A stretch of 56,887 nucleotides of DNA, the filler included, from Sphacelaria rigidula (taxonomy: Eukaryota): assembly GCA_964200075.2 (NCBI GenBank). It is 6 parts of 6 records of this genome, joined end to end, with 100 filler letters (N's around TTAATTAATTAA, not from the genome) between each part and the next. Parts side by side here need not be neighbours in the genome. Positions count along the whole stretch, not along the records: positions 18,998 to 28,395 come from CAXNAA020008593.1; 5 more parts are not named here. The stretch is one strand, 5' to 3'. How positions within the stretch are numbered: position 1 is the first letter of the stretch; each line of letters opens with the position of its first letter. Below the pieces are notes generated by a model. It did not search any database, was not told where the DNA came from, and saw nothing but the letters and a program-made list of their open reading frames with translations. This document shows positions 8,344 to 47,490 of the stretch, piece after piece. A program made the position numbers and the translations under genes.

Positions 8344-9105
8344 TTCCTCTCCTTTCTTTCTCTCTTTCCTTTTCTTTTTTTTTTTTTTTTTTTTCTTCTT
8401 TTGTNNNNNNNNNNCCCCTTTTTTTTGTGGGTACACCCAGTGGTAAAAAAAAAAAATTTTCCCCGCCCCCCCCCCCCCCCCCCCCCCCCCCCTCCCAGCA
8501 GCTCTTGATTTGATTTTTTTTCCTTCTCAAACGAGATAAATGTTTATCAGCCTTTAGGGCGTCAGTTGCTCAGCAAGACGTTGTCGAAACAACGCACACG
8601 AGCCGTGCGTGGTTCGTTCGTGTGTTTCATGAATAAACTTGGATGGTGTGCAGTGGTTTAAGCAGTGTTGAGTGTTGTTTTCGATTCATTAATCAATCAT
8701 CATTATAGTTCTCTGATGATCCAAGATGATTCAAGCAAGCAAGTAAAGATGATCACGCCAAATAAATAACGCAGATCCTCCGGCTAAACCCCCTCAGCAA
8801 CACTAGTGCGGCCGTTGCAGTGGTTGCTGCGGTCACAGACGGGTGAAGGGTTTGTCGTTCGTCGCAATTACCCCCCCTCCCCCGCCTCGATATTTTGTCC
8901 CAACTAATTAGTCTCGCCGCGTTTTTGCGAAAAATCCTTGGCTCTGCTTGTTATGGTGTTAGGGTCCCGAACTCTGGTCATCTGACTCACTTAATTGGGT
9001 ATGCTAGGATTCATGATCAGGTTGCATCAAGTAATGGATCAAGCGGGTCATGTTCGCTTACACAGCGTACTTCAAGCCCGGAACCTGATCATGAATCTTA
9101 CCGAG

Positions 9106-9399: not shown

Positions 9400-9499
9400 N
9401 NNNNNNNNNNNNNNNNNNNNNNNNNNNNNNNNNNNNNNNNNNNTTAATTAATTAANNNNNNNNNNNNNNNNNNNNNNNNNNNNNNNNNNNNNNNNNNNN
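9400..9499. other. Artificial contig spacer
   Basis: N44-TTAATTAATTAA-N44, which places stops in all six frames. Confidence 0.97.
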
Positions 9500-9842: not shown

Positions 9843-12800
9843 ATGATTACCGCCGCGAACACCATTGCAGCACGTGCCGCGCTTATCGGCGCTGTGTCAC
9901 TTGGCCGAATGGTGCTGCGAAAACTGGGCGATATGCACCCGCTGGCGCTGTGTCGCGAAGAGTACAGGGAAGTACCCTCTCCCGCAGGCATAGCAGAGAA
10001 GGGCATGTTGGAATGTTTTCTACCGGCGTTGCACCAGGCTGTGCAACGTAACGAGCATGATGAGGAATACCGGCGCAGCTCACTACAGACAGGCTGGAAA
10101 AACGTACGGGGAAAGGTATATATTGTTGCATTAGATTTTGCAGGAGGTAAGGGGTTAGACCATGACGGAACAATGATCCGACAGTGGATGGAGGCTACGG
10201 GAGTGCATTGAGAAACAGTCAACTATATCTTTGATGCTGCAGTAGCTGAGTCGGGTGCGCACCCCACGGTCGACAGTTTGCAGGAAATGGCTCTTCACCA
10301 CGCTGGGGTCAAAATGGTCTAGCATCGATGCGCTTGGGTTAGCAGCTAAAGTGTGCGACTTCAATTTTGTTTTTGGGGCGAAAGAATCAAGTGATAAGCT
10401 TGTGATATTCCGTGACGCCGATATGCACGGACTGTTCATCGTCGGCAGCGACAAACCATACGTACATTTATTGTGTAAAGAAGTCCGCACGCAGAGTGCG
10501 GAGGTAGAGGCCGAACACGGACGGTATGCGGGGATCGTTGGTTTTGAGTTATTAATTATTACCCATACCACCGCCGGATTGGAGAATGCTGTGGGGACTG
10601 TAGTACAAGCTACGGATAGGACCACTACACCTCCGCGCTGTCTGCCGCTGACGCAGTTAGGGAGGGAGGAGGACTCAGCTGTCGTCTACCAGCATGGCGT
10701 GGCTTTTTTTTTTTCCTTGATGGAAGGAGGAAACCCAACCCAATACTTACCCCGCTGGCGACCGCAACGATCGCGAGCGAGTTCGTGTGCCGATTACCCG
10801 AAGGCTGCCGTGGGTGAATATTCCCCGAATGATGTCGGAGGCATGGCGATGGTTCCGCCACTGGACGGACGGCAACTTGCGTCGGGCGCCGTGCAGGCGG
10901 GATGCGGCGCCCTCGTTTCGGGGGGCGCAGCGATCCTTCCTACAGAAGCACAGAGTCAGACCGCGGCGCCTCCTCCTCACCGTCCGCTTGCTACACAGTT
11001 GTGTGCCAATAGCCACTACACAGTGCACTAACAGCCGTGCGTTGGCGCCTCTTTGGGGACCGAGCCAGTCGGGAAAGCGAGCCTGGCAGGATGAGGCCGA
11101 GCGCAAGTTGGGCGGGGTGAACTGCAGGGGGCGGCGGCGGCGATGGCAGGCACGGCGGGGGTTCGGAGGTTGGGTGCTGTACCGTTGTTGCAAATACCAT
11201 CGGCAACCGCACTCGCTCGTGTGCCGGCCGGGTTTCGTTCAGCGACTTCTCAATCACCCCCCATGCCGGGGCGCGCGGCTATCACCAGCGCCGTGTCAGA
11301 GACACACCCAAGTTCACACATCCAACTCGGCCGTGTTGCTGATGCAAATACAGCACCAGATGCGGGTGTTCTCACCTTTGGAGCGGGAATCGGTGCTGGA
11401 GCAGGAGGACCAAATCGGGGTATATCGTCGCAGCACGTGAGTCGCGCAGCGGCTGGCGCCGCGTCCATGGACCGCATGGGCGCCCGCACACACACGAGTC
11501 CCATGCATTCTACCATGGTCCGTTCGTCGGCGGCGACCTCTGTGGCGAGTGCCGCTACAACTCCCAAACACGTCGCCGTTAGTAACGTCCAAGCGTGGGC
11601 TTCGACGATTCGTATCCCCATCACCGCTCCATCGCGGCGATGCCACGAGGAAGCAACCGCCTCCCTCGGTCGCCCCGCACGGCATGGTAAGCCCGTCGCC
11701 CACCGCACCCGGAGTATCGGCCACTCCCGCCGCACTGTCGAACGGTTTGTCAGCACAATCCGTCAGCCTACAATCCGTGAGGCTGTCCCCACAAACCCTG
11801 CCGGGGGTACCACGACACTCTATGCTCGCGGAGTCGCCCATACCCACTCTGCGGCTTTCATCGGGGGTGGCTGCGTCTCCGTCTCCTTTTGCGATGGTGG
11901 GGTCCCGGTCGGATCGTTGTACGGGGGGCTCTGCCGAGAGTACCTCAGATAGTCTGAGCGTGAGAAGGGGATATACGCCCCGCCCTTCACCATTCGTGCC
12001 GACGACCCCGCTGCCACCACTGACCGCGGCGCGTGGTCTCGAACACTTCCGTTCGCGGACCCAGTCTCGCTGCTCAGCCTCTCCTCGCCTTCGACCTACC
12101 GTTTTCTTCGTGGCTTGCCCCATGACGGCGGTGGACCCGTGCAAGGACGGGCAACGATGCCCCTACCCTTGCACGCAAGGCTCCCGGCCTTTGAGGCGCG
12201 ACTTCCGTCGCCGCCGCTGGGCAGCGGCGGAAGCCGCGTTCCAGGTCGCGGCGTTGGCTCTACCGCCGGGCAGCAGGCGACGTCGATGCGTTCCCCTATC
12301 GGTGGTCCAGGCCGCAACTCGGGTTCTCCTGCTAAACAGAGATGCACCGCTATGTTCAAGGACGGAAAGAAGCAAGGTGAGCTGTGCTGCGCGCCCGCCC
12401 GGGCTGGGTCCGCGTACTACGGTAAGCACGAGAGGTCCGGTAATCCCCCCGTTGTGGCGCCCACGGGTCGAGGTCGGCGGCGCAAACGCAAACGCACTGT
12501 GGCACTTTCGATGTCCGATGGTGATTTCCGGAATCCCGTCGCGGAGGGCGAAGGTTGGGACGACGATCGTGAAGTGGCGTTCTCCGACAGTAATCCAGAG
12601 TTCGAATATGATCTTGTGGAGCTTGGCAGCGCAGATGTTACTCAGCGTCAGGGCGCGAGGGTCATGCCAGACGTCAGGAAGTTCAAAGCCGAAATGGAGA
12701 AGTTGAAGAAAGACTGGGCGAAAAAGGTGTACTCGACTGTACAGGAGATGGTGCATCCTCCGCTCCCGCCCCAGGTGAGATCCTTGTTAGGGTTGGCAGT

Positions 12801-13200
12801 AACGACGTCGACCAGACGCCGTATTGTCCGATTAAGCGAATAAGCTCTCCCACATCCGGTGGAAACTGTGGGTCAATGTTGCACATCGCGGCGGCAGTCA
12901 CAGTTTCAGACCATTGCGGCATCATGGGTTAATCTTCTTTTCTTCCGAAACTCTCCGTTATTTCCCTTGGTATCTGGCTAGCATCCGCGCAGTCACGTGC
13001 GACCCCGAATGAGATATCGCACAATACGTGCGCCCCTGCCGCGCCATAGTGGAACGGTATGAATCCTTCCTCGTAGACGATATGGTACGCCGCACTATCG
13101 TCGCACCCGCATGCACAGCTAGATATTATGGTAGTGCGGCTGCTGATGTTGGGGCGGCTGCTGCTGATACGGAGTTGGCGCCGATGGGGGTGACGATGAT
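9843..13200 (+). pseudogene. Decayed, intron-poor long ORF of unknown family (TE- or virus-derived?)
   Basis: Successive GC-rich + strand frames (9822-10211, 10255-11031, 11143-11952, 12115-12843) broken by stops and frameshifts. Contains a Cys/His motif, a basic GRGRRRKRKR stretch and an acidic stretch. Confidence 0.4.
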
Positions 13201-13209
13201 CACGGTTCT

Positions 13210-15597
13210 TCAGTCGTGAAGTTTTCAGTCTTTTTGTTGTAGAAGATGGATTAACGTTGGCTCCTGCACCCCTATCGCAATTTCTGCGCCTGCTGTTGTT
13301 TTCGGTTACAGAGTTGAGGCGTCTATTCTTTTCATGAGATTTTGAATTTCGCCTATTATCCGTACTGATGCATGCAGCTGTAGGCTTGACCCATGAAGAT
13401 CTAGGTTCACTGTTGTTTCGACTCTTGCCCATGTTTCCCGCTGAACGGCGCACTGTTTTGAATCTATTGCCGAATGCTGTCGGGGGCGGTTCTGCGATCT
13501 TGACTATTCCTGTCGGTTTGATGTCCGGCGGAGACAGTGCGGCTGATAATGCTATGCCCATCCCCATACATTCTCCGGATACTAACTACCTTCGCCGTGA
13601 GTGCTGACTGGGTCCTTTTGTTCAAGATTTCGAACCTGCGTACTCACGTAGTGTAACGCTCCACCACAGTTGCTAATCGGAATTCTAAATTTTCCGAGGT
13701 CTACGTAAAAATCACCCGAAAAGACGGTTGATACCCCTTTTCTTCCCGCCTCTATGGGAGAGAACATATGTCTCCCCAGAAGCTGAACAAAGCGCTGGAT
13801 TCCTTCAGAATCAGTAACGATGGTGTTAATAACGTCTCTTGCCGTAACATGTAGGAGATGACGTCCAGCAGTAAGAATATTCATTGATGGATCAAGCTTC
13901 ACGTAACCAACTATTTCTCGATCAATGTTCGGCAACAGCTGATCGTCTAAGAAATGTCCACTTGAGCCACTATCAACTGTCATCTTGAAAAAAAAATCAT
14001 CGGGTGTACAATGGTCGACAAGTGACATGTGTACTTGAAGGAAGGGAAATCCGATACCGTTTGATGGTGGGCAGGTATCGGTCGCAGGTGCAGCTGAAGA
14101 TGTTGAAAATTGTTGGCGATGGTTGCTCGATGGTATGGTCGTGGAACCTGGATCGGCGATGGTAGTATTAGCTTGGCTTTGATATCCGTCGAAGTTGTTG
14201 CTGTTGCCGTCGTTGCTGTTGTTGTTGTCGTTGTTGTCGTCGTCGCGGTTGTTGTCGTCGCGCTTGCCGTTGTTGCGTTGGCTACAATACTCTGAACCGT
14301 CATGTTGATTAGTGCGGTGAAGACCGCACCATTTTACAGGGCTGTTTTCATTATTGGAATGTCGTCTGGAGTGACAGTCGCGCATACGATGGCCTGGTTT
14401 TCCACAGGAGTAGCATTTTTCACAAAATTTTGCGGGTTGATTCGATGAGTTCGAGATTGCTGCCGCCAGCATCGATGAATCCCGGCCATGTGATCAGCTG
14501 GCAGTTACTTTTCGCGCCAGTCTACTGCCAGTCTACTGGCATATACGTTGCGCAGGGTACTTTCGATTTCCCCGATGCTGAAGTCCGGGTCTCGTTCGGC
14601 GTTGTACTTTATCTGGTCATAGTCGCTGGTTAGACCCTCGACTACAATATCTGCTTATCTTTCATCGGAGATGGGCTCGCCAATATGAAAGAGCTCGTCT
14701 CGAAGCTGGAATAGTTTTGCCGAGAGCTTGTCCGGATCTTGCCCCGGTGACATGGTCATGTTGTCCAGCTGTCGCGTTAGTGAGCGGCGTCTTTATTTAG
14801 ATGAATTCTGGTACTTAGCCACCAGACCTTCCCACGCACATTTGCCGTTTGGTTTGTCTGAACCCTTCGGCTGAAAACGCAGGAGGAAACTTGCTGCTGA
14901 ACAAGTTGTCGACAACTACACGACGTTGAACAACTGTTCGTGATGGCGGTACCAGTTTTCTATCTCACGCGTGTTCAAAATTTGTCTCACATGTGACGCG
15001 ACGATGGGATAATCAGACACTTCTCGAACAGGAGGTTGAGCTTGATAACCAGCAGATTCAGCATCACCCGTCGCTGCTGTCGCCTCGCTCCTCGCGGTTG
15101 CCCCCACCGATGGTGACGGCGAACGAGCGGGCGGCAGCTGATGGCTTCTGAAACGAGTGGCAATGGGGCTTGTTCTCGACGTTGATCTGGCAGCTGGATG
15201 TGGGTGATCTACCTCAGAAAAAGCTTCATCATACATTTCCGTGGGGCGTTCAACCCCGTTGAGGATAACAGAAATCCTCGGATGAGTCAAGGAAAATATC
15301 GCGCGCGTAAAGCGCGTCCACTCGACGAATTTCGTACCGTCGAACTCCTTGATACTCCTGATGAGTTGAGTCACAGATGGCTTTCCCGATATGTTCATCT
15401 GCCTCGAGATTAGTTTACAAAAAAAAAATTTCACGCCTGCAGATCCTTTGAAGGGATCTGATTTCTTGGTCTTCTGGTTGACCCTGCTGAAACGACCTTG
15501 AAGTTTACGTCCCCTCCTTAGTGCTTACCATCGTAGTTTCGAATCGAAAGCTGATGAGCTGATGAACTACGTGCTCGCGAATCGAATGCTCAAAACC
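13210..15597 (-). mobile_element. Ty1/Copia retrotransposon internal region (gag, zinc knuckles, aspartic protease), degenerate
   Basis: Gag-like FDGTKFVEW and AWEGLVAKYQNSS...GQDPD, CCHC knuckle CYSCGKPGHRMRDC, protease motif MTVDSGSSGHF. Several in-frame stops. Confidence 0.85.
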
Positions 15598-18897: not shown

Positions 18898-18997
18898 NNN
18901 NNNNNNNNNNNNNNNNNNNNNNNNNNNNNNNNNNNNNNNNNTTAATTAATTAANNNNNNNNNNNNNNNNNNNNNNNNNNNNNNNNNNNNNNNNNNNN
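18898..18997. other. Artificial contig spacer
   Basis: N44-TTAATTAATTAA-N44. Confidence 0.97.
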
Positions 18998-21995
18998 GAT
19001 GTCCTAGTTGTCCCGCTAATTTGCTACAGAGTAAAAACTCACACAATGCAAGCAGCCAGGCTGTGCATATTTCCAACAAGGACATCGTGCTTTTGTGACT
19101 ATCAACATCAGTCATCCTTTTTTGTAATTGCAGCGCATCTCAAAAGTGCATCCGCTGCGTTTGGAGACACGCTGCGAAGCCGACACTTCGTTGATGAAAA
19201 GCGTGACTGGTACCGTCGGAGGGCGCGAAATTACAGTGCGTCGACGCTATTATAGGCGGTATGTGTTGGGTTAGTGAGAAAATATTGCTATCGTGTCAAA
19301 TCAGTTGGTAGAAGACAAGACGTCGAACGGGCGTTTCATCTTTCAAATGATTGGAGCCAAATTCCCTCAACAAGCGCGCAAGACCGAGTTTGTTCGACAA
19401 GCGTGAAACTAGACGTGCGTATTGGTGACTTCAGACCATTATTCGTCGCCGTCGGTACCGTGTGGTTGCTTGAAATGACGTCGGTGCAATTGAGCCGCTG
19501 CTGGAGTATCGCATGCTGTCCGGTAGTTGGACACAGCTCGAAACCAGCTGCTGATATTTTCATTTTAGCTACGAGAGGGACACGCCTATCCACACGATTT
19601 ATGTGCGTTTTCCACTGCCGAGAACAGAGTAAAACGAGCTGAGTAGCGGTATGTATTTCGACGATACGTTGGGATGAACAGTTCCGAAAATCTGGTGCAG
19701 ATACCAAAGATGGCGACAATGGACCGTACTCGACGCCGAAATATTATTAATGGTTTTGAGACGTGCTTGGCTCAACCCCACCGTAAATGTGTGCCACGGG
19801 CTACGTGGGTGCGGCAGTGAAGCCGGTTCACGGGAATTTCCGTATATTTTCGGAGGAATGCTTGAGTCTTTTGGTTCATCAATTTGTACGTCTAAACTCT
19901 AGTTCAGTGGTTATGCTTAAATTATGGCAATTACAAGGATAATTTTCATGTCAATTACGGGTTTGCCGGAACACCCATGACGCGGCGTAGATGTATGCGT
20001 CAACCACCTGCAGCCATGAAGTATCATAACGCAATATTTACACGAGTGGCTGTATGTTGAATGCGATCCGTCTGAGCAATCTATCGGTATGCACCTTGCG
20101 TCATATTGTGCCCACGCTTGTTGACAGGCTACCAACGTTTACCGAGGTGTCGATAGGTACTGCCTGCAGTATTGGCTATGAAATTCAGTCCAGTCAGCAG
20201 GCATTTCTTCTTCAGTTGTCGCCAGTGCGTCGCATTTGAATACCATGGGTGATGCTGTTGACAGTGCGCCATAGGATACAGACGATGGTGATGAAACCAT
20301 GACTGGAGACGTTGTATAGTAGGGGGCTGCAGCTACCGAACGATGCATATTTCTCGCTTCACGGCGCTGTGCTCGTGGCGAATGAATGAAAACAAGCAAC
20401 CAAAACACGGGTTACGCGTTCGTGGCTGTGTTCCACGGCAGGTTTTTCAGACAAGCGCGCAAAATCAGTGCCATAAAAAGCCTGGAGCATGACGCAAAAT
20501 TCTTGGACGTCGCTCTCAACTTGTTGAAGTATGAGTTTTTAAGATGGACAATGTATCGCTAGCAGCGGCATATTGCTCTTTACAAGTTGTGCTTTACCCT
20601 ACGTTTGACTTCGTGGCATGCACAACGCAACCTCAGCACCGGCATGCTGAAGTTGGAAATAGATGTAACTGAGTCGATAGCAGGTGTTCGTTTCAAGTTA
20701 TACTCAGCCCTTCCGCGGTACTTCACTTATTATGCAGTTCATACGCGCTATCGGTTGCTACAACAACCGTAAAACTCGTGACGCTGTAGCATTGCTAGGA
20801 CACCAAACATAATATAAATTATTCAGTAACTGCTTAACATCTCTTTTCCCGGAGTAAAACGCCTAGGATGACATGCTTGACACAGAACTGGACGCAACTG
20901 TAGTGTGAAGCCAGAAAATCTAAAATGTGCGAACAACTGGTAAGGTCTCTTCGCAGAGATTTCGGATAACATTTTGTTTCAACGTCAGCTTACTTTTTGT
21001 CAGCGCATATCTCACGAAGTTGACAGTTTTGAGAACTCTGCTCTTTTTTATCGCTCCTAACACGCAAAACACCGGATATAAGCTCGATTGATAACCGCAC
21101 ATTAACTGATCGCCGACAGAACCAGCTGCGGTCATTATCCACAAGATGGATGTGCCCGAGGTGAACACAACCGAAACGCTTGCTGAGGGAAGAGGAAAGT
21201 GAAAAGAAGCAGAGCTCGGAACAAAAATGAAAATAAATGTTTTACGCAGAGAAAGGAAAAGCGAGGTGAGGTGATGAGAGGAGAGTACTCAAGAGGGGAT
21301 AAAGAGACGGCCCAAATGAAAAACAATGAAGAAACCAGAGCAAGAGGGGTACAGGGGGTGCGAGGCCTACACTGATGAATTTGGCACCCATTTCGTCTTC
21401 ACATACACTTCACGATTTTCCCACGAAGTGATCAGCACGAACGAATAGGACGAAATGTTTGCTATCTGACAGCTGAGCGTGCAGAGCCACCGCCGAACGC
21501 CAGCGGCGCCTTGGAGAGCTTACTGCTATACATGATTTCACAAGCTACATACTCAATACAATCCTTTATCGTTTGTCGTTCATGAATGCAATGACGATGA
21601 TACGGCGAGATGGGGTATGCGCACCCCAAATTGTGATGACACGAGGCACACGGTTCAAGCGTAGTCCGACCGACGTGAGACTTCTCAGGCAAACGCACTC
21701 CAAACACGGCGTCGTCTCCGCAATCCCTTTTATGGTTTCCCCATCGTTATCCGACGAACGATAACCTCCTGCAGGCACCAACTCCTCTCTTTGCATGCCT
21801 GTTCCAGGGCCTTGTACGTAATTTGACGTTAGCTCGATGTCCAGAGTTGGGGCGCTGGGGGGGGTTGGTGAGAGCATACAACCTCAGTGAAGACTGAGTA
21901 AAGTAAGTGCTCGAGCGGAGTTGAGTAAAACGCAACATCATTTGTTTGCTGAATCCCATTTTTATCATCTTTGCACGATTCGTTTTGAGCCGTAG

Positions 21996-22067
21996 GTGTT
22001 ATCCCGAAGGAGCTGATTTTCCTGGCGCGGCTGGAGTACATGGGGCTGAGCGGGAACAACTTCGACC
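21996..22067 (+). CDS. 72-bp leucine-rich-repeat exon (GVIPKELIFLARLEYMGLSGNNFD)
   Basis: Bounded by ccgtag| and |gtaagt, exactly 72 nt, phase 1-1. Fits the GxIPxELxxLxxLxxLxLxxNxL consensus. Not called by the ORF track. Confidence 0.85.
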
Positions 22068-22787
22068 GTAAGTGAATCTATCTGAACAAGTTCGACCCTA
22101 GCCACATACATCGTCCTCCTCCACATAGGTTTCAGTGGACTACAGCCTGTTTCCATCGTCCACTCATGATGAGCCCAACGGCTGCTCGGTAAAGAGATAT
22201 TTTGAGCGCAACGTGAGTTAGGGTCTGCAGGGCGAGAAGCAACCCGAACGAGTAAATACATGGAGGAAGGTGTTGATGTTAGTGGTATCCTTAGTAGGAG
22301 TTCCTTGGAGTTATCTTCGCTGCATTTGTGCGCCACGCACCGGAACCTACGTTAAACGGAGAGCTCTCGTCATGGTCTTTGTAAAAGGAAGGATTTCGCT
22401 GTTGTATTGTTACCAATGGCCTGGGTGGCAGATAAAGGGCGTCGGCGTGATGTGTGCAAGTGGTACTTGTGTTCGAGACTCCACCCGATCTATAGAACCC
22501 AAGACATTGAGTGCCGGTTCTCTATCCCTGAATTTCAAAATGTTATCTGAGTAGATATCTGCGCATGTTCTACTGAACAACACACACATGTGTAAAAAAA
22601 GGACTCAAGCCATTTGGGTTGCCATCAGGATACGTACGTTGTTTGTGAAAGCAAATTGTTTGGCTTTGTGCACGTCCCCACCACATTGAAGACCAGGGTC
22701 TAGGGGTAAGCGTTTAGCGACAAAATTACACTGGAGCATATCTTACCCGCGGTCAATCACTTGGTTTTTCGGTGTTGAAAATGATGA

Positions 22788-23039
22788 ATGCTACGGTAGG
22801 GATGCACACATCATATTGTTTTAGGTCAAAACTGTTAGGAGCCGTTTATCTCATCAACAAAGCGACTCATAAAATATCGGACGAGAGTACGCCAGGATTA
22901 CTGGTTCAATGTGCTGGAGATATCCCGAATAAGTTTGCACACCGGGATGCCCTGACTCATATTCTTGTGCATCTAGAACCGTCAGGGGCCCTTGAACCAG
23001 ACAACAGTTTGCGCAAAAAGTGCACCCCTACCGTAGCAT
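22788..23039. mobile_element. MITE family 1 copy
   Basis: TIR atgctacggtagggatgcac / gtgcacccctaccgtagcat. Homologous to 450-714. Confidence 0.75.
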
Positions 23040-24901
23040 CGCTCAAGAGTGAGTGCAGGTCGGATGCTCCCGAAACAAACTTGCGCTCAGACGATTGTTC
23101 GTTGAAAAATCACCTATATCTGTAGGAGTGTGTCTTTTGAATTGAGAAGTTGCAGGAGTAAAATATTTGTTTTGTTATTTCTGTAAAGTGACTATCGCCA
23201 GCGCACGTGTCGTTTGAGGCGCGACGTGAGGATGTCGTCCTGCTGTCATCATGACTTTACAATCGTGTTCGTGCTTTATGCTGCACATTATCCGCACACT
23301 CTGGCGCACCAGATGGCCCTGTTGAAGATTTGAGGGGACGCTACATCTCGCCATGGATGCAGCGCACACTGCTGCGAGGTGGGTATGCCGCAGATGCTGA
23401 CACTTGGGGATGATCAGTGGCAATGCTCTATCTAGCGTACAGACATGCTTTGCGAAAGGTGATTGCGATGTATCGTTGCATGTACCCGAGCCTGCTTCCC
23501 CTCGCCGTGCCAGGCTCCTGGGTTCATAGTTGGTGCACAAAGTTTCTGTGAAGTTCACTCGTCATGTGCCAGCGAGAAGGCCCCGAAGAAAAATGCTGGA
23601 TTACATCAAGTCAACTCTCCAGCTAGATGGGATGGTTGTTGTTGATATGATGACATCTGGCGAATTGTGCGTTCAAGCTGATGAATGATTGTTTGGCATA
23701 GTGCTTCCCAATCATTTCGGTTGTCTAAGGTAGCGCTAGTCTTCACTACCGACCGTGCTTTTGGTGCCACTCGAAAGCTCTGTTATATATCTGAAATACT
23801 GGGGTGCCTCAGGATATCACCAGAATGAAACGATCCTGATCCAAACCATCACCCCTGTCGTGGTATGCGCTGGTGATCGAGCTAAACCCTCTTGTTCACC
23901 GTGTTGAATCTGATATACAGTCTTGTACATCGTGCGACTACGGCCGCCGCAACAAGGTATCAATTGTATTTTTTAAGACCCCGGAATACTGCCTTCCATG
24001 CCCAATAGCATATATCCATGTACATCTATTTTTGTCTCAAACCCAACACTCTCCCTGTTATTACTTGTCCTTGCGGATCTCACGACTGTGCAAAACAATG
24101 GGACCCCTATCTAGTACGAGCTGGGCCAGCCTAGAGTCTGCATGAACGTTTGCAGGCGGATGCGCCGGCCAATATTTGGAGTGAAAAGCAAAAGGGAGAT
24201 TTACTGCTGGCCCAGCTCGTATGTCGGAGAATCGTTTGTGTGCGCCCTCGGTCAGTATGTAGACAGCACTGCGTACTGACTGACATGAATGTTTACAGAG
24301 ACAGGCACAACGACTTCACAGCATAGCGAAGACTTACCCGTCTGTAGACATCACTGCGTACCAACTGACATGATGTTCTACAGAAACGAACAGGACGATA
24401 ACACAGCAGCTCAAGCAAGGCCAATGGAGACTCCACCGTGTTCGCAAGGTCTAAACACACCATAGTACAGTAATAGCTACGGTACACGAGAGAGGGCGTC
24501 AGTGTGTTTGTGCTGCAGGACCGTGGAACAGAGCATGTCCTACGTTTTGGTTCTTCTCCTGATTTTTTCACGATTCCTCAATTTGTGCCGGGTGCCGATC
24601 TTGAACGCACGGTCATAGCCACGATTCGCGCACATGCTTTGATTCTGTACAAAACCATCCCCATTTATGGGTCCTGAGCATGTACGCTTACGAACCGACG
24701 CTCACACACCGAATGTTTTCCCCTCAGCGTCCTCAAATTGATCAGGGAAATGTAGAAGTTCGAACCCCGCATTCTCCACAGTAGTGCTCACTTGATGTAC
24801 CAACCAACACTGCGCGTGATGCCACTACTAGAACGCGACTGCCCCTGTACTTCGACAGTCATCGATTAGATGAAGGGTACGCTTAACTTGTTCAATCTCA
24901 G

Positions 24902-25758
24902 GTGAAAACGAGCATCCGCCTTCGTGGGCTTTTCAGGCGGTGCAAGTGCTGACGTCGCTATGGCATTTCGTGCTCCCGGTGTTGGATGACATTACCGACC
25001 TGGTGCTCCTGTGGCAAACGTTCGACAGCACTTCACCCACCCTGTGGTGTATCTGTGCGGTCGTGTTTGCCGTGGCTGATTATGAGCGCTTGTATGTGGC
25101 GTTCTTCGTGGTCGTATTTTTGGCGAGGGCCCTTCTTTACCAGCTATGCTGTTGCTGCAACAGTTACGATGGAGTACGTCATTACGTCTCTGGTGTGCTG
25201 ACAACGCTAGCTTTTGGGCAAAGGATCGACCTGGATGAGGCATGGATCCTGTTTGTCGATTCTTTGTTGTGGGTGCTGTTCGGCTCACGGGCTCGATCCG
25301 GCGACTTGATGCGACAGCTCGGGCTAGCGGGGGACGCACCGGTGGAGGCGTTGAACCGGGGATCTGGTAACAACGCCATCGACGTGCTCGTTTATTACCA
25401 CCCCTTCCGGTATTTTGGTGCATTCGTGATGAGCTTCCCTCGCGATCGGAGATTGGTTACCCGAACGCGCAGAGAGGCACACCGGAGGACGACCGCTATG
25501 GTGAGGGCGGTCGGGGAGACACTGCTGGTGGATCCGTTGTTCCTTGCTCTCTCGGTGGTGTCGGGGGGTTGGGATGACAACTTTACGGGGTTCACCTTTA
25601 TATCCGGGATGTTTTCGATCCTAGAATTGGTAAGCGAGTTACAGTACTATATTACCGAAGCAGAGCATGCCCTCCCCCACTCTACGGGAGCCGAAAGGAC
25701 TGGTGACCGGGGAAGTGGCGGGGCCGTGGCCAGCCCTGCAGTAGGACAGAGCGTGTGA
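24902..25758 (+). CDS. Terminal exon encoding a multi-pass membrane domain (XK-like motifs), probably the C-terminus of the LRR gene
   Basis: The phase-1 acceptor tctcag|GT GAA AAC continues into the 272-aa ORF. About 5-6 hydrophobic segments, with motifs LDDITDL, GETLLVDP and SGMFS. Confidence 0.8.
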
Positions 25759-26579
25759 ATGTTGGTTCACTCGGTGATATTTGCATCACGGCGGACGGGG
25801 GGCGGGTGCAATGGGCTGTTTTTGAGTTGTTGTTCATATGTGCTTGAAAATATTTTCAGCCGAACTGCGCTGCCCGCATCGGTGCCTGCCAGAGTGGGCG
25901 GCAATACAGTCGTCGGCGCGTTGGAATAATCTATTCCAGTATCATTCCGGTAGTTTGCTTCAGGTCTCATGTGCGAACTGCCTATTCTGCCTGCTTGCAT
26001 TGCTTATTTTTCGCCATCGTATCAGAGAGGGTATCCAAGTGTTTCTGCGTGTTCGTGGTAACCATCGCGGCGCGCCTGGGAGACTCGGACCTCCGTCGGG
26101 ACTGACAATTCTCGTAGTGCACGCTTGCGTCCATTCATCGACTCACACTCCCCTGGAAGTTTCCCGAATGACTGCTTTGTTCTGACGTCCTCTACGAAGC
26201 CATACCCACAGTAAGTACACTGATGACTGTAGTGTCCACATTACGGTGGGGAAAACGCGCGGTTCGACTCTCGCCAGATACCCTCTCATCTTCAAAACCA
26301 ATGTGTAAATTTGGTATGAACATCCTTACGTGCATGAAGAAGAGCTGCCAGAGCACACCCATGGCGATCTCTCGACCACAGGGATATGTTTAACTGGTGA
26401 TATGTCGCCGCGATTCTTGAGATATTTTTGTCGAACGGAATATCGGTGTTTAGACTGGCCGAGCTCGTCGTGATTCGTGTTTGAATCAGGCTAGACACTT
26501 TATTGCCCGACATGTTCTAGGCAACCGTGTCCTCCACAGATGCGCAACAGGTGGCAAACCACATTTCCACACACTTTCC

Positions 26580-27310
26580 ATGTGTGTGTCATCCCATTTA
26601 TTCTGAACCCCAGTTTAAACCTTTCGCTACATGTATGTGGGCACATCAGCCGGAGTCAAAGGAGAAAGTTCAACACAGAAGAGTCTCCTGGAAAATGATG
26701 TTGAATATGAAAATGAGTTTCAACTCCAAACAACGTTTCCCCTCACCTAACGTCATGGCAAATAACTCTCCTTTGGGCGGCCTCATACCCCCCGACCTCT
26801 GTGGGACTTATTTTGGGAGTTTCCCGTCTCCTGTCGCCCCAGAGAGCATGTGCGAAAGCACCTGATTGGCTGGATTTGAGGGTGAAAAAAGAGATGACTA
26901 TAGAGCGAAAACAGCGCTTTCGCACATACCCTTTGGGGGGACGGAAGACAGGGAACCCTCAAAACTATTTCAGGGGATGCGGGAAAGTGCCGTTTTGGGC
27001 TTGACCCGCATTTGAATATTCCACCTCATTTTCGAGGAGACTATACATGTTCTTCACTTTTTATTTTGATTTAGTTCTCTATTGACCTTCTGCGGTGCTT
27101 GCCTTGCGTTTCATCGCGATGAGGGCTGCCGTCTGTTTCCCTCGTAAGCCGTTACGTCGAAATTTGTGGACGTGGGATGTCGTGCTTCACTGATGAGCAT
27201 GATGTGAGGACAAAATATCAGAGATCATGTGACTTCACCAGGATTCGAACCCACGTCCCAAACAGCAGGAAGTTTCGTTGTTACCGAGTGAGTCACCGGG
27301 GCGACGGTTT
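26580..27310 (-). mobile_element. SINE family A copy interrupted by a MITE
   Basis: Tail half at 26580-26681 and head half at 27043-27310 (ggattcgaaccc...gtcaccggggcgac) match the other family A copies. Confidence 0.7.
26682..27042. mobile_element. MITE related to family 3
   Basis: TIR agtctcctggaaaatga / tcattttcgaggagact. Shares an aaaatgag.ttcaactc motif with the 16570-16988 element. Confidence 0.7.
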
Positions 27311-28395
27311 CTAGAAAACAAAGTAATGTTATTGTACGAATACTACAACGTAGAAAGGGAAAATTCCCGAAAGTGTCCGTTGAGGAATCGCCTTTCGACA
27401 TTGGCGACACGATGGGATAACTCGTACGCTTCATGATGATACAGGCTCACGGGTTTGAACTCCGGCTCACAGCAAACGCAACGGAAACATTACTCGAGAA
27501 CACCGAAGTCATTACGATGGAGGACCAAACAACCGATGTGTGACCTCGAAGCAGAGTGGGTCGACTCACGAGAAAGTCGTCTGCGGAGATTGCTGGATTG
27601 GGGTTTAAATAAACATAGGAGACATGGTGAAACATGCTGTTCCGAAGGTGTAGCAAACTGTCAACCTTTGTCGAAGGGACATCAACGTCACTTGAAAGAC
27701 GTCTGTGTGATCTAGATGAACCATCCTCGCGGTCTTTGGGTTAACCATCTCTGGACAAAATAGAGGCGGCACCTTGGAGAGGGTGTGTAGGGAGAGGTTT
27801 TCGATCTTTACAGGGTCATTTTTCGGTCTTGCACACTAATTTCAAGTCAAATCAATGTAACGCCTCGGCGGGGTTTTTGCTTCTTCGACATAACCTCATT
27901 TTGAACAAGGTTCATTTTTGTATTGGACAAGACGCATAAAGAGCAAAGGCCTAGAGCCACCAGTAGTGATTGGTCATGCTCCCGAACAAGCGTGAGTCAG
28001 GAATAACCGATGAGGGGTGCACAAGTTCTAGTTTTTTCTTTTACATATGTCGTCTACCGGAAAAATTTAATGTGCACCCGGGTGTACAATGGAAACATAT
28101 GCGCACCCGGGGATGATGGCAAAAAACCGTGCGGCTGGTCAGTGCCGCGTGACCACCCCGTCTATGATGACGCAGCCCACACTTTCAGTCGGAGCCAGAA
28201 AAAAAACACAGAGAAGTTCTGTAAGATACATGATGTTGTGCTCTGTGGCGAAATCACGCCGTCACGGTTGAGTATAAAGTGGATCCTGGATGATGACTCT
28301 TGCTGTGTAGCCCAGGCCAGATGGTGCAGGGCTGCAGAATTTTCACTCCGAGATAATGATAAGGTGTTGTTGTAAAGGCTGACAACGGAGACCTT

Positions 28396-28495
28396 NNNNN
28401 NNNNNNNNNNNNNNNNNNNNNNNNNNNNNNNNNNNNNNNTTAATTAATTAANNNNNNNNNNNNNNNNNNNNNNNNNNNNNNNNNNNNNNNNNNNN
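28396..28495. other. Artificial contig spacer
   Basis: N44-TTAATTAATTAA-N44. Confidence 0.97.
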
Positions 28496-37893: not shown

Positions 37894-37993
37894 NNNNNNN
37901 NNNNNNNNNNNNNNNNNNNNNNNNNNNNNNNNNNNNNTTAATTAATTAANNNNNNNNNNNNNNNNNNNNNNNNNNNNNNNNNNNNNNNNNNNN
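37894..37993. other. Artificial contig spacer
   Basis: N44-TTAATTAATTAA-N44. Confidence 0.97.
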
Positions 37994-47390: not shown

Positions 47391-47490
47391 NNNNNNNNNN
47401 NNNNNNNNNNNNNNNNNNNNNNNNNNNNNNNNNNTTAATTAATTAANNNNNNNNNNNNNNNNNNNNNNNNNNNNNNNNNNNNNNNNNNNN
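47391..47490. other. Artificial contig spacer
   Basis: N44-TTAATTAATTAA-N44. Confidence 0.97.

Follow-up and report, generated by a model that had tools for sequence, protein, structure and literature searches.

The last coding exon of a gene from Sphacelaria rigidula (positions 24902–25758, plus strand) encodes a 284-aa membrane domain that, on sequence comparison, is a member of a conserved, so far undescribed membrane-protein family seen only in brown algae. The exon lies in a window of 56,887 nt, by which we mean the whole stretch of DNA analysed here: six record parts of assembly GCA_964200075.2 joined with filler, in which adjoining parts need not be genomic neighbours. The gene is carried on the part at 18,998–28,395, taken from CAXNAA020008593.1. 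In relatives from other brown algae the same domain usually follows a run of leucine-rich repeats (LRRs), and its predicted structure resembles half of an XK-related (XKR) scramblase; that it is a single-repeat relative of the XKR N-terminal repeat we judge from this model to be about an even bet (probability roughly 0.5). An earlier note on this DNA had joined the exon to a 72-bp LRR exon 2.8 kb upstream and proposed the product as a candidate LRR sensor wired directly to an XK-like membrane effector. A fusion of LRRs to this membrane domain does occur in brown-algal gene models, whereas the Sphacelaria locus itself offers one LRR and no linker.

The brown-algal family and its LRR-bearing members

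The terminal exon follows an AG at 24900–24901 and stays open until a TGA at 25756–25758, within a frame of 294 codons. It is delimited by its translation, its homologues and the ends and depth of read contigs, and its peptide, here called P0001 (other P numbers are relatives), has six hydropathy peaks and a CCCC cluster at residues 82–85, which reproduces the hydrophobic segments and cysteines of the earlier note. No Pfam domain was detected in P0001, the best score being that of COPI_assoc (E 0.51); in this exon, the only one scanned, no kinase, ROC-COR or NB-ARC domain follows the LRR before the stop, as the note had stated. Thirty-two database relatives were recovered, headed by P0003 (E 9.3e-93) and including an Ascophyllum protein at E 2.0e-73. 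When a profile of these 32 was compared with 1,835,955,588 representatives, it matched 83 at E ≤ 1e-3, 63 at E ≤ 1e-10 and 33 at E ≤ 1e-30. All members with a species name come from brown algae (Ascophyllum, Ectocarpus species, Pylaiella, Scytosiphon, Cladosiphon and Nemacystus), and they are annotated as 'unnamed protein product' or by a gene identifier only. A search for longer relatives gave zero matches among 5,809 candidates. The note had raised a match to an unrelated known family or to a transposable element (TE) as an alternative; neither Pfam nor the scans of members returned one. In a tree of 47 sequences, left from 49 after two with short coverage were removed, P0001 and P0003 are sisters, and the pair is sister to a clade that holds LRR-bearing members.

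Two alignments of the family were used, A1 with 32 and A2 with 29 sequences, and P0001 retains 14 of 14 invariant columns in the first and 19 of 19 in the second. The strongest family motifs are WHFxLPVLDDxTD, ADxER, DSLLWxLxGSRxRS, IDxxVxxHPF, MVRAVGETLxVD and LELVTELQYY. Helix 1 carries the motif L27-D28-D29-I30-T31-D32 (24982–24999, plus strand, as for all motifs given here), in which D28, D29 and T31 are kept by 29 of 29 sequences and D32 by nearly all, being His in P0059 and Asn in P0011 and P0031. The CCCC cluster, C82–C85 (25147–25158), stands at the end of helix 2; homologues are rich in Cys at this site, though they vary there. D119-SLLW-xLFGSRARS (25258–25299) lies at the end of the second short helix (residues 110–131), with D119, W123, G127 and R129 invariant in A2, and the predicted cytosolic loop contains IDVxVxxHPFRYxG (25378–25419), with D160, H166, P167 and G172 invariant. 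The most conserved motif of all is MVRAVGETLLVDPLFLALS (25498–25554), in the third long helix with R201, E205 and D210; R201, A202, V203, G204, E205, T206, D210, F213 and L216 are invariant in A1, D210 nearly so across alignments. The last long helix (25591–25671) bears S234-x3-S238 and E241-x3-E245 (LELVSELQYY); S234 is invariant, and F237, S238, E241, E245, Q247, Y248 and Y249 are conserved in at least 90%. Conserved charges within helices are therein D28, D29 and D32 (helix 1), R62 (helix 2), D119, and E205/D210 (helix 3).

LRR Pfam domains stand N-terminal to the membrane domain in 3 of the 32 first matches and in 6 of 10 long matches scanned, the other four being without any Pfam match, and models with LRRs are spread over four of the tree's clades. 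Most LRR-less entries are open reading frame (ORF) calls on short contigs and as such are uninformative on upstream exons. Full-length relatives, for example a 534-aa Scytosiphon protein, share one order: a cap, DRDALxxLYxxTxGxxW....W.GV; two to six or more type I LRRs of 24 residues; a linker of about 25–40 residues such as GPxPPSNF..L.RWVQIR, always present in homologues between the last LRR and the domain; and the membrane domain of about 250 aa. As judged from these sequences, the LRR-membrane architecture is real in brown-algal gene models. Nine models start with the cap, and in all of them residues 1–40 are free of any hydrophobic stretch. Because full-length relatives have no signal peptide, the LRRs of the family are probably cytosolic, as in ROCO proteins, and the reading as an LRR receptor at the cell surface was rejected.

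Some members depart from this plan. In P0052, an 865-aa gene model of Cladosiphon okamuranus, two EsV-1-7 cysteine-rich motifs lie C-terminal to the membrane domain (E 1.7e-18); this part may be a true fusion or the result of two merged genes. P0047, P0051, P0053 and P0057 carry long low-complexity inserts in loops of the domain.

Predicted fold and likeness to XK-related scramblases

An AlphaFold2 model of P0001, built from the 32-sequence alignment without templates, reached a pLDDT of 84.7 and a pTM of 0.80. XKR structures were first released in 2021, later than the AlphaFold2 weights. The model has helices at residues 8–40, 45–82 (with a kink at 59), 88–102 and 110–131, several short ones, and then 194–221 and 230–256. 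This order fits that of the XKR N-terminal repeat: passages of PMC8298096 and PMC12334663 describe the XKR fold as two related repeats (ND, the N-terminal one, and CD), each of four membrane helices and partly inserted helices, and the first as transmembrane helices TM1 and TM2, partly inserted helices, TM3 and TM4. With an all-chain aligner run over 48,161 chains, three XKR representatives came within the top 8: human XKR4 at rank 1 (9boj_B; 9.5 / 5.2 / 160; chain residues 108–365), rat XKR9 at rank 4 (7p16_A; 8.0 / 4.9 / 142; chain residues 4–190) and human XKR8 at rank 8 (8xej_X; 6.5 / 5.2 / 154; chain residues 7–374). A list of 881 chains was headed by all four XKR8/XKR9 entries. Three of the five XKR rows (7dce, 7p14 and 7p16) end at XKR8/XKR9 residues 190–198, inside the N-terminal repeat, onto which the whole model maps in these rows (XKR8 7–194, XKR9 4–198), and the XKR4 span of 108–365 is taken to be its ND; the 8xej row reaches over 7–374. 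By the measure of this model, XK-related scramblases are the closest solved folds for P0001. In the ESM Atlas, the first Pfam-bearing cluster for each of two queries (P0001 and P0041) was PF09815, XK-related (0.82; 25% of members), which we treat as a lead only; there were no matches at 0.9 or above, and the best were unnamed eukaryotic clusters at 0.86–0.88.

The nearest ESM Atlas clusters (0.84–0.88) consist of eukaryotic proteins of 260–270 aa. Few of their members are labelled, some of these as Mucoromycota and Foraminifera, and the clusters might represent comparable membrane proteins of half size elsewhere among eukaryotes.

Three helix motifs had been likened to XK-related proteins in the earlier note, and one of them, the D-x3-D of helix 1, would match by alignment offsets. 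Model residue 9 is aligned to XKR8 residue 7 and model residue 11 to XKR4 residue 108, so that, if helix 1 is gapless, D28/D32 would fall on XKR8 D26/D30 and on XKR4 D125/D129. In a second model, that of P0059, residue 26 is matched to XKR4 residue 109 and the equivalent D42 would fall on D125. According to the parts of PMC8500837 drawn on here, scrambling is markedly reduced in Xkr8 D26A, D30A, K134A, E137A, E141A and R183A; the corresponding parts of PMC12334663 give D125, D129 and E313 as the XKR4 equivalents, report that charge-neutralising mutants slightly impair scrambling by hXkr4, and place a break in XKR4 TM3 near P316. In the section of PMC8298096 that treats them, XKRs are characterised by acidic residues in TM1 and TM3 of the N-terminal repeat; the brown-algal family carries acidic residues in what would be the same pattern, with D28/D29/D32 on helix 1 and E205/D210 on the third long helix. 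The E-x5-P motif did not hold, its Pro being replaced by S, T, G or I in many members. As for S-x3-S, S234 and S238 are conserved in the family, but no XKR counterpart was identified.

Several results weigh against kinship with XKRs, and some of them also speak for the strongest rival explanation: that the membrane domain is a brown-algal invention unrelated to XKRs, such as a channel or transporter subunit or an anchor for cytosolic LRR scaffolds, whose likeness to XKRs reflects common helix packing. No sequence method ties the domain to any known family. PF09815 matched 0 of 32 A1 members and 0 of 29 A2 members at E ≤ 10, and no XKR chain of the PDB was retrieved by sequence, whether the query was the whole profile, a piece from the N terminus, or a profile of the N-half or of the C-half. 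Foldseek against the PDB gave nothing at E ≤ 0.001, its best match being rhodopsin at E 0.28. With a model of P0059 (pLDDT 76.2), XKR9 came no higher than rank 4 and XKR4 no higher than rank 7, level with bundles and DHHC enzymes, and in a second alignment of that model XKRs were absent from 50 rows, which were drawn from 856 Foldseek chains possibly without any XKR. The domain would amount to one of the two XKR repeats, half the fold, with about 250 aa and four long plus two shorter helices; the register of the Asp pair is derived from the first and last aligned residues; and the profile matches are limited to the 83 representatives, the named ones all from brown algae. Set against the rival are the three XKRs in the top 8 of 48,161 chains and the XKR8/XKR9 entries at the head of the 881-chain list, the three of five rows that end within the N-terminal repeat (with 8xej covering 7–374), the register that would match a conserved Asp pair to the functional one of three XKR paralogues, and the acidic TM1/TM3 pattern that passages of PMC8298096 present as typical of XKRs. 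We regard an origin unrelated to XKRs as possible, though not as the expectation; the proposal of the earlier note is partly supported, with an XK-like fold plausible for a single repeat and no link in sequence.

The topology that we infer from the model is as follows. Two long, tilted helices (1 and 2) would cross the membrane, with the Cys cluster at the cytosolic end of helix 2, where it could conceivably serve as a palmitoylation site. The helices at 88–102 and 110–131 would dip into the inner leaflet, the basic loop 132–193 (9 K+R versus 6 D+E) would be cytosolic, and the helices at 194–221 and 230–256 would cross the membrane, with both termini and the LRRs facing the cytosol. In the mechanism that we think likeliest, a single-repeat, XKR-like module of this kind would thin the bilayer or scramble phospholipids; for scrambling the odds are lower than for the XKR kinship itself. 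The cytosolic LRR domain could hold or release the membrane module on binding a protein partner, a control that would have its parallel in XKR8 and XKR9, whose C-terminal tail is inhibitory, as passages of PMC8298096 document for XKR9. A bolder version, which we consider rather doubtful, makes the family a free-standing 'ND-only' half-scramblase, acting alone or self-paired under an intracellular LRR sensor, gated by ligand in defence or cell-death signalling, and a living half-sized ancestor of the two-repeat animal XKRs. A homodimer prediction for two copies of residues 1–262, in which the alignment was unused, scored 0.00, with the fold uncertain in at least one run.

The Sphacelaria locus

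Upstream of the terminal exon on the same strand, the 72-bp type I LRR exon occupies 21996–22067, with AG at 21994–21995 before it and a GTAAGT donor from 22068, as read from the sequence. It encodes (x)VIPKELIFLARLEYMGLSGNNFD plus one spare 3′ base, the 23 residues VIPKELIFLARLEYMGLSGNNFD being the translation of exon bases 3–71. Type I LRR exons of brown algae, in the parts of PMC3341825 and PMC11378527 that concern them, are 72 nt long and follow GxxPxxLxxxxxLxxLxLxxNxLx; the exon meets this pattern, with M and F at two L positions, and agrees with the earlier remark that one repeat per 72-bp exon is typical of brown algae. A hidden Markov model (HMM) of 39 homologue LRR units, run against the six-frame window, had the exon as its single match (E 0.0026; next E 2.7), and tblastn matched the exon to LRRs of P0019, P0028 and P0034. 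Across a putative 2.8-kb intron with GT..AG ends (22068–24901, plus strand), the spare C of the LRR exon and the GT of the terminal exon would form an Arg codon, giving ...GNNFD-R-ENEHPPSWAFQ... in frame. The phase-1 LRR exon and the terminal exon of the earlier note were in this way borne out by the sequence, the homologues and the LRR HMM, and the sequence allows their putative join in frame.

Of eight read runs that contain the exon, none is recorded as RNA; four, all of contigs, were compared with the window, namely X1 and X2, which are RNA by the tool's guess only and come from organisms about 5–7% divergent from the window sequence, and X5 and X6, which are DNA-like. Contigs start at 24901 (X1) and 24900 (X2), no more than two bases from the predicted acceptor, and depth on the terminal exon is about 106 (X1) and 90 (X2) versus about 16 and 26 in the preceding intron bin, a 4–7-fold step. 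The X1 contig spans 24901–26213 and that of X2 runs from 24900 to at least 26499, both past the stop, which gives 25759–26499 (plus strand) as the minimum extent of a probable 3′ untranslated region (UTR). These contig ends fit an acceptor site at 24902 and a 3′ UTR no shorter than 450 nt. In the LRR-exon bin, X2 has a mean depth of 17 with zero in both adjoining bins, and X1 has zero cover.

Other results count against an LRR-membrane product at this locus. The earlier note had looked to reads joining 22067 to 24902, and no such joint is among the 15 listed of 41 in the contigs of X1, X2, X5 and X6. The contig starts hint at an upstream exon ending in G or AG, which would make a Gly junction codon, unlike the C of the LRR exon, and the junctions of relatives indeed read ..LG|H and ..PG|Q; because the X1 and X2 organisms are about 5–7% divergent, the last exon base may differ, and the mismatch is only a hint. 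The LRR HMM and tblastn found no further LRR units in the 56.9-kb window. An HMM of nine N-caps scored E 1.4 at best in the window, and one of six linkers gave E < 1 on the plus strand only in the terminal exon itself (E 0.044), its remaining matches lying on the opposite strand (best E 0.042). No linker-like exon was found by script among 229 phase-compatible open segments of the intron. The locus is therefore incomplete or reduced, with one LRR exon and neither N-cap nor linker exon. With a single repeat no LRR solenoid or domain is possible, so that the product would have a vestigial LRR part at most and may consist of little more than the membrane module. Within the LRR exon, an in-frame ATG (22040–22042, plus strand) could start a short product, MGLSGNNFD-R plus the membrane domain, without a functional LRR domain.

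These observations also speak for a second rival explanation, in which the LRR exon does not enter the mature mRNA: it would be an orphan or shuffled exon or a remnant, and the terminal exon would be joined to another 5′ exon or begin at a downstream ATG to yield a membrane-only protein. The isolation of the sole LRR unit, the linker that homologues always have, and the contig starts at 24901 and 24900 all suit this explanation. Non-coding, reshuffled LRR exons are also documented for Ectocarpus in the part of PMC3341825 that deals with them, and a retroelement, of which a gag-like CCHC ORF at 13585–14493 (minus strand) is a remnant on another joined part of the window, may have broken up the gene's 5′ region. 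Against it, the LRR exon has the same strand, the right phase and intact canonical splice sites, 2.8 kb before a domain with LRR-fused relatives; X2 depth is confined to its bin, the two adjoining bins being empty; and the divergence of the X1 and X2 organisms bears on the mismatched base as already said. On balance we think it unlikely that the exon is left out of the mRNA, while giving the idea real weight.

That the ORF is a TE protein or decaying pseudogene is very improbable: very high-copy repeats fill the adjoining intron, and remains of retroelements are found further upstream in the window (on another joined part), but 294 codons are open with every family-invariant residue retained, X5 depth over the exon (about 270–390) is that of unique flanks against 10^4–10^5 for repeats, Pfam matched no TE family, and the relatives are ordinary multi-exon LRR genes. 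Because its frame is intact, its invariant residues are kept and its depth is that of unique flanks, the terminal exon is a real gene exon and neither a TE protein, which its single-copy depth and the lack of a TE-family match rule out, nor an obvious pseudogene.

The repeats of the intron lie at 22674–23155 and 23879–24842, where depth in X5 and X6 is 10^4–10^5 versus about 200–300 elsewhere. Many contigs link 23044/23045 straight to 24113–24116, and the two segments look like one repeat element split by an insertion of about 1,070 bp.

Elsewhere in the window, in a different joined part from the gene, retroelement remains extend over 12932–15524 on the minus strand. The ORF at 13585–14493 is gag-like: it encodes a CCHC zinc knuckle (E 2.8e-05) as well as DSGSS, a stretch resembling an aspartic protease site, and is flanked by long ORFs without a Pfam match; in window coordinates it lies 7.5 kb before the LRR exon, and it may have broken the gene's 5′ part. 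A GC-rich block at 10000–13000 (0.54–0.59 versus about 0.48 elsewhere; again in another joined part) has long overlapping frames on both strands, two of which were tested and gave no Pfam match. The gag-like ORF and this block suggest an insertion. Paired runs of 44 N with 12 bases between them occur at 9400–9499, 18898–18997, 28396–28495, 37894–37993 and 47391–47490 (also 8405–8414); spaced by about 9,498 bases and hiding about 100 bases each, they look like an artefact of masking or record building and not like ordinary assembly gaps.

Significance and relation to known systems

Complex multicellularity arose independently in the brown algae, and next to nothing is known of their immune and cell-death machinery; their candidate receptors so far are LRR-ROCO, LRR-kinase and NB-ARC-TPR genes. 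With an LRR domain coupled directly to a module that perturbs membranes, signalling would pass from ligand binding to membrane change by a different, very short route. Were the domain truly XKR-like, the fold would extend, at half its size, well beyond the animal proteins, which bears on the origin of two-repeat scramblases and on whether an N-terminal repeat with its acidic stairway suffices for membrane thinning. In XKRs it is the N-terminal repeat that bears this acidic 'stairway', needed for lipid scrambling, and work on XKR4 suggests that the repeat suffices for thinning the membrane. Naming the family would also aid annotation of public brown-algal proteomes, in which its members are 'unnamed protein product' only.

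The earlier note's impression that the architecture is uncharacterised agrees with the literature examined. No description of the family appears in the main text of PMC3341825, in PMC11378527 or in the Phaeoexplorer preprint, as far as their passages on LRRs and receptors go, nor in what full-text searches on XK-related proteins and stramenopiles or on the evolution of Xkr scramblases returned; supplementary table 1 of PMC3341825, which lists 251 Ectocarpus LRR loci, stands apart and may include family members. XK-related domains are not unheard of in stramenopiles, since part of PMC13524835 reports them inside integrin-like proteins of the stramenopile Pirsonia.

With the XK-related scramblases (XKR8, XKR9, XKR4, CED-8; PF09815), the family would share, on the predicted model, the layout of the N-terminal repeat, namely two long helices, short partly inserted helices and another two helices after them; acidic residues in membrane helices 1 and 3, where the alignment offsets would put D-x3-D in register; and termini that are both predicted to be cytosolic. 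It differs in lacking detectable sequence similarity (PF09815 in 0 of 32 and 0 of 29), in having one repeat (about 250 aa) where XKRs have two (ND + CD, 8 TM), and in bearing an N-terminal LRR domain but no caspase-cleaved C-terminal tail. In named records it is restricted to brown algae, and scrambling is only proposed for it.

With the type I LRR-exon genes of Ectocarpus, such as LRR-ROCO (Zambounis et al. 2012, PMC3341825, as far as the sections used here describe them), the family has in common the 72-nt exon, one repeat per exon, the consensus and the phase. Its LRRs likewise have no signal peptide, and the cap DRDALxxLYxxTxGxxW is common to the full-length relatives. In the main text of PMC3341825, the only transmembrane segments mentioned are the one or two that anchor some ROCOs at the C terminus. 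The effector of the brown-algal family, in contrast, is a multi-pass membrane domain and not ROC-COR or a kinase.

A precedent for an LRR wired directly to a membrane effector is found in animals, where the LRRC8/VRAC anion channels combine cytosolic LRRs and a four-helix membrane module in one polypeptide. They differ from the brown-algal family in that their LRRs are C-terminal and their membrane part is pannexin-like.

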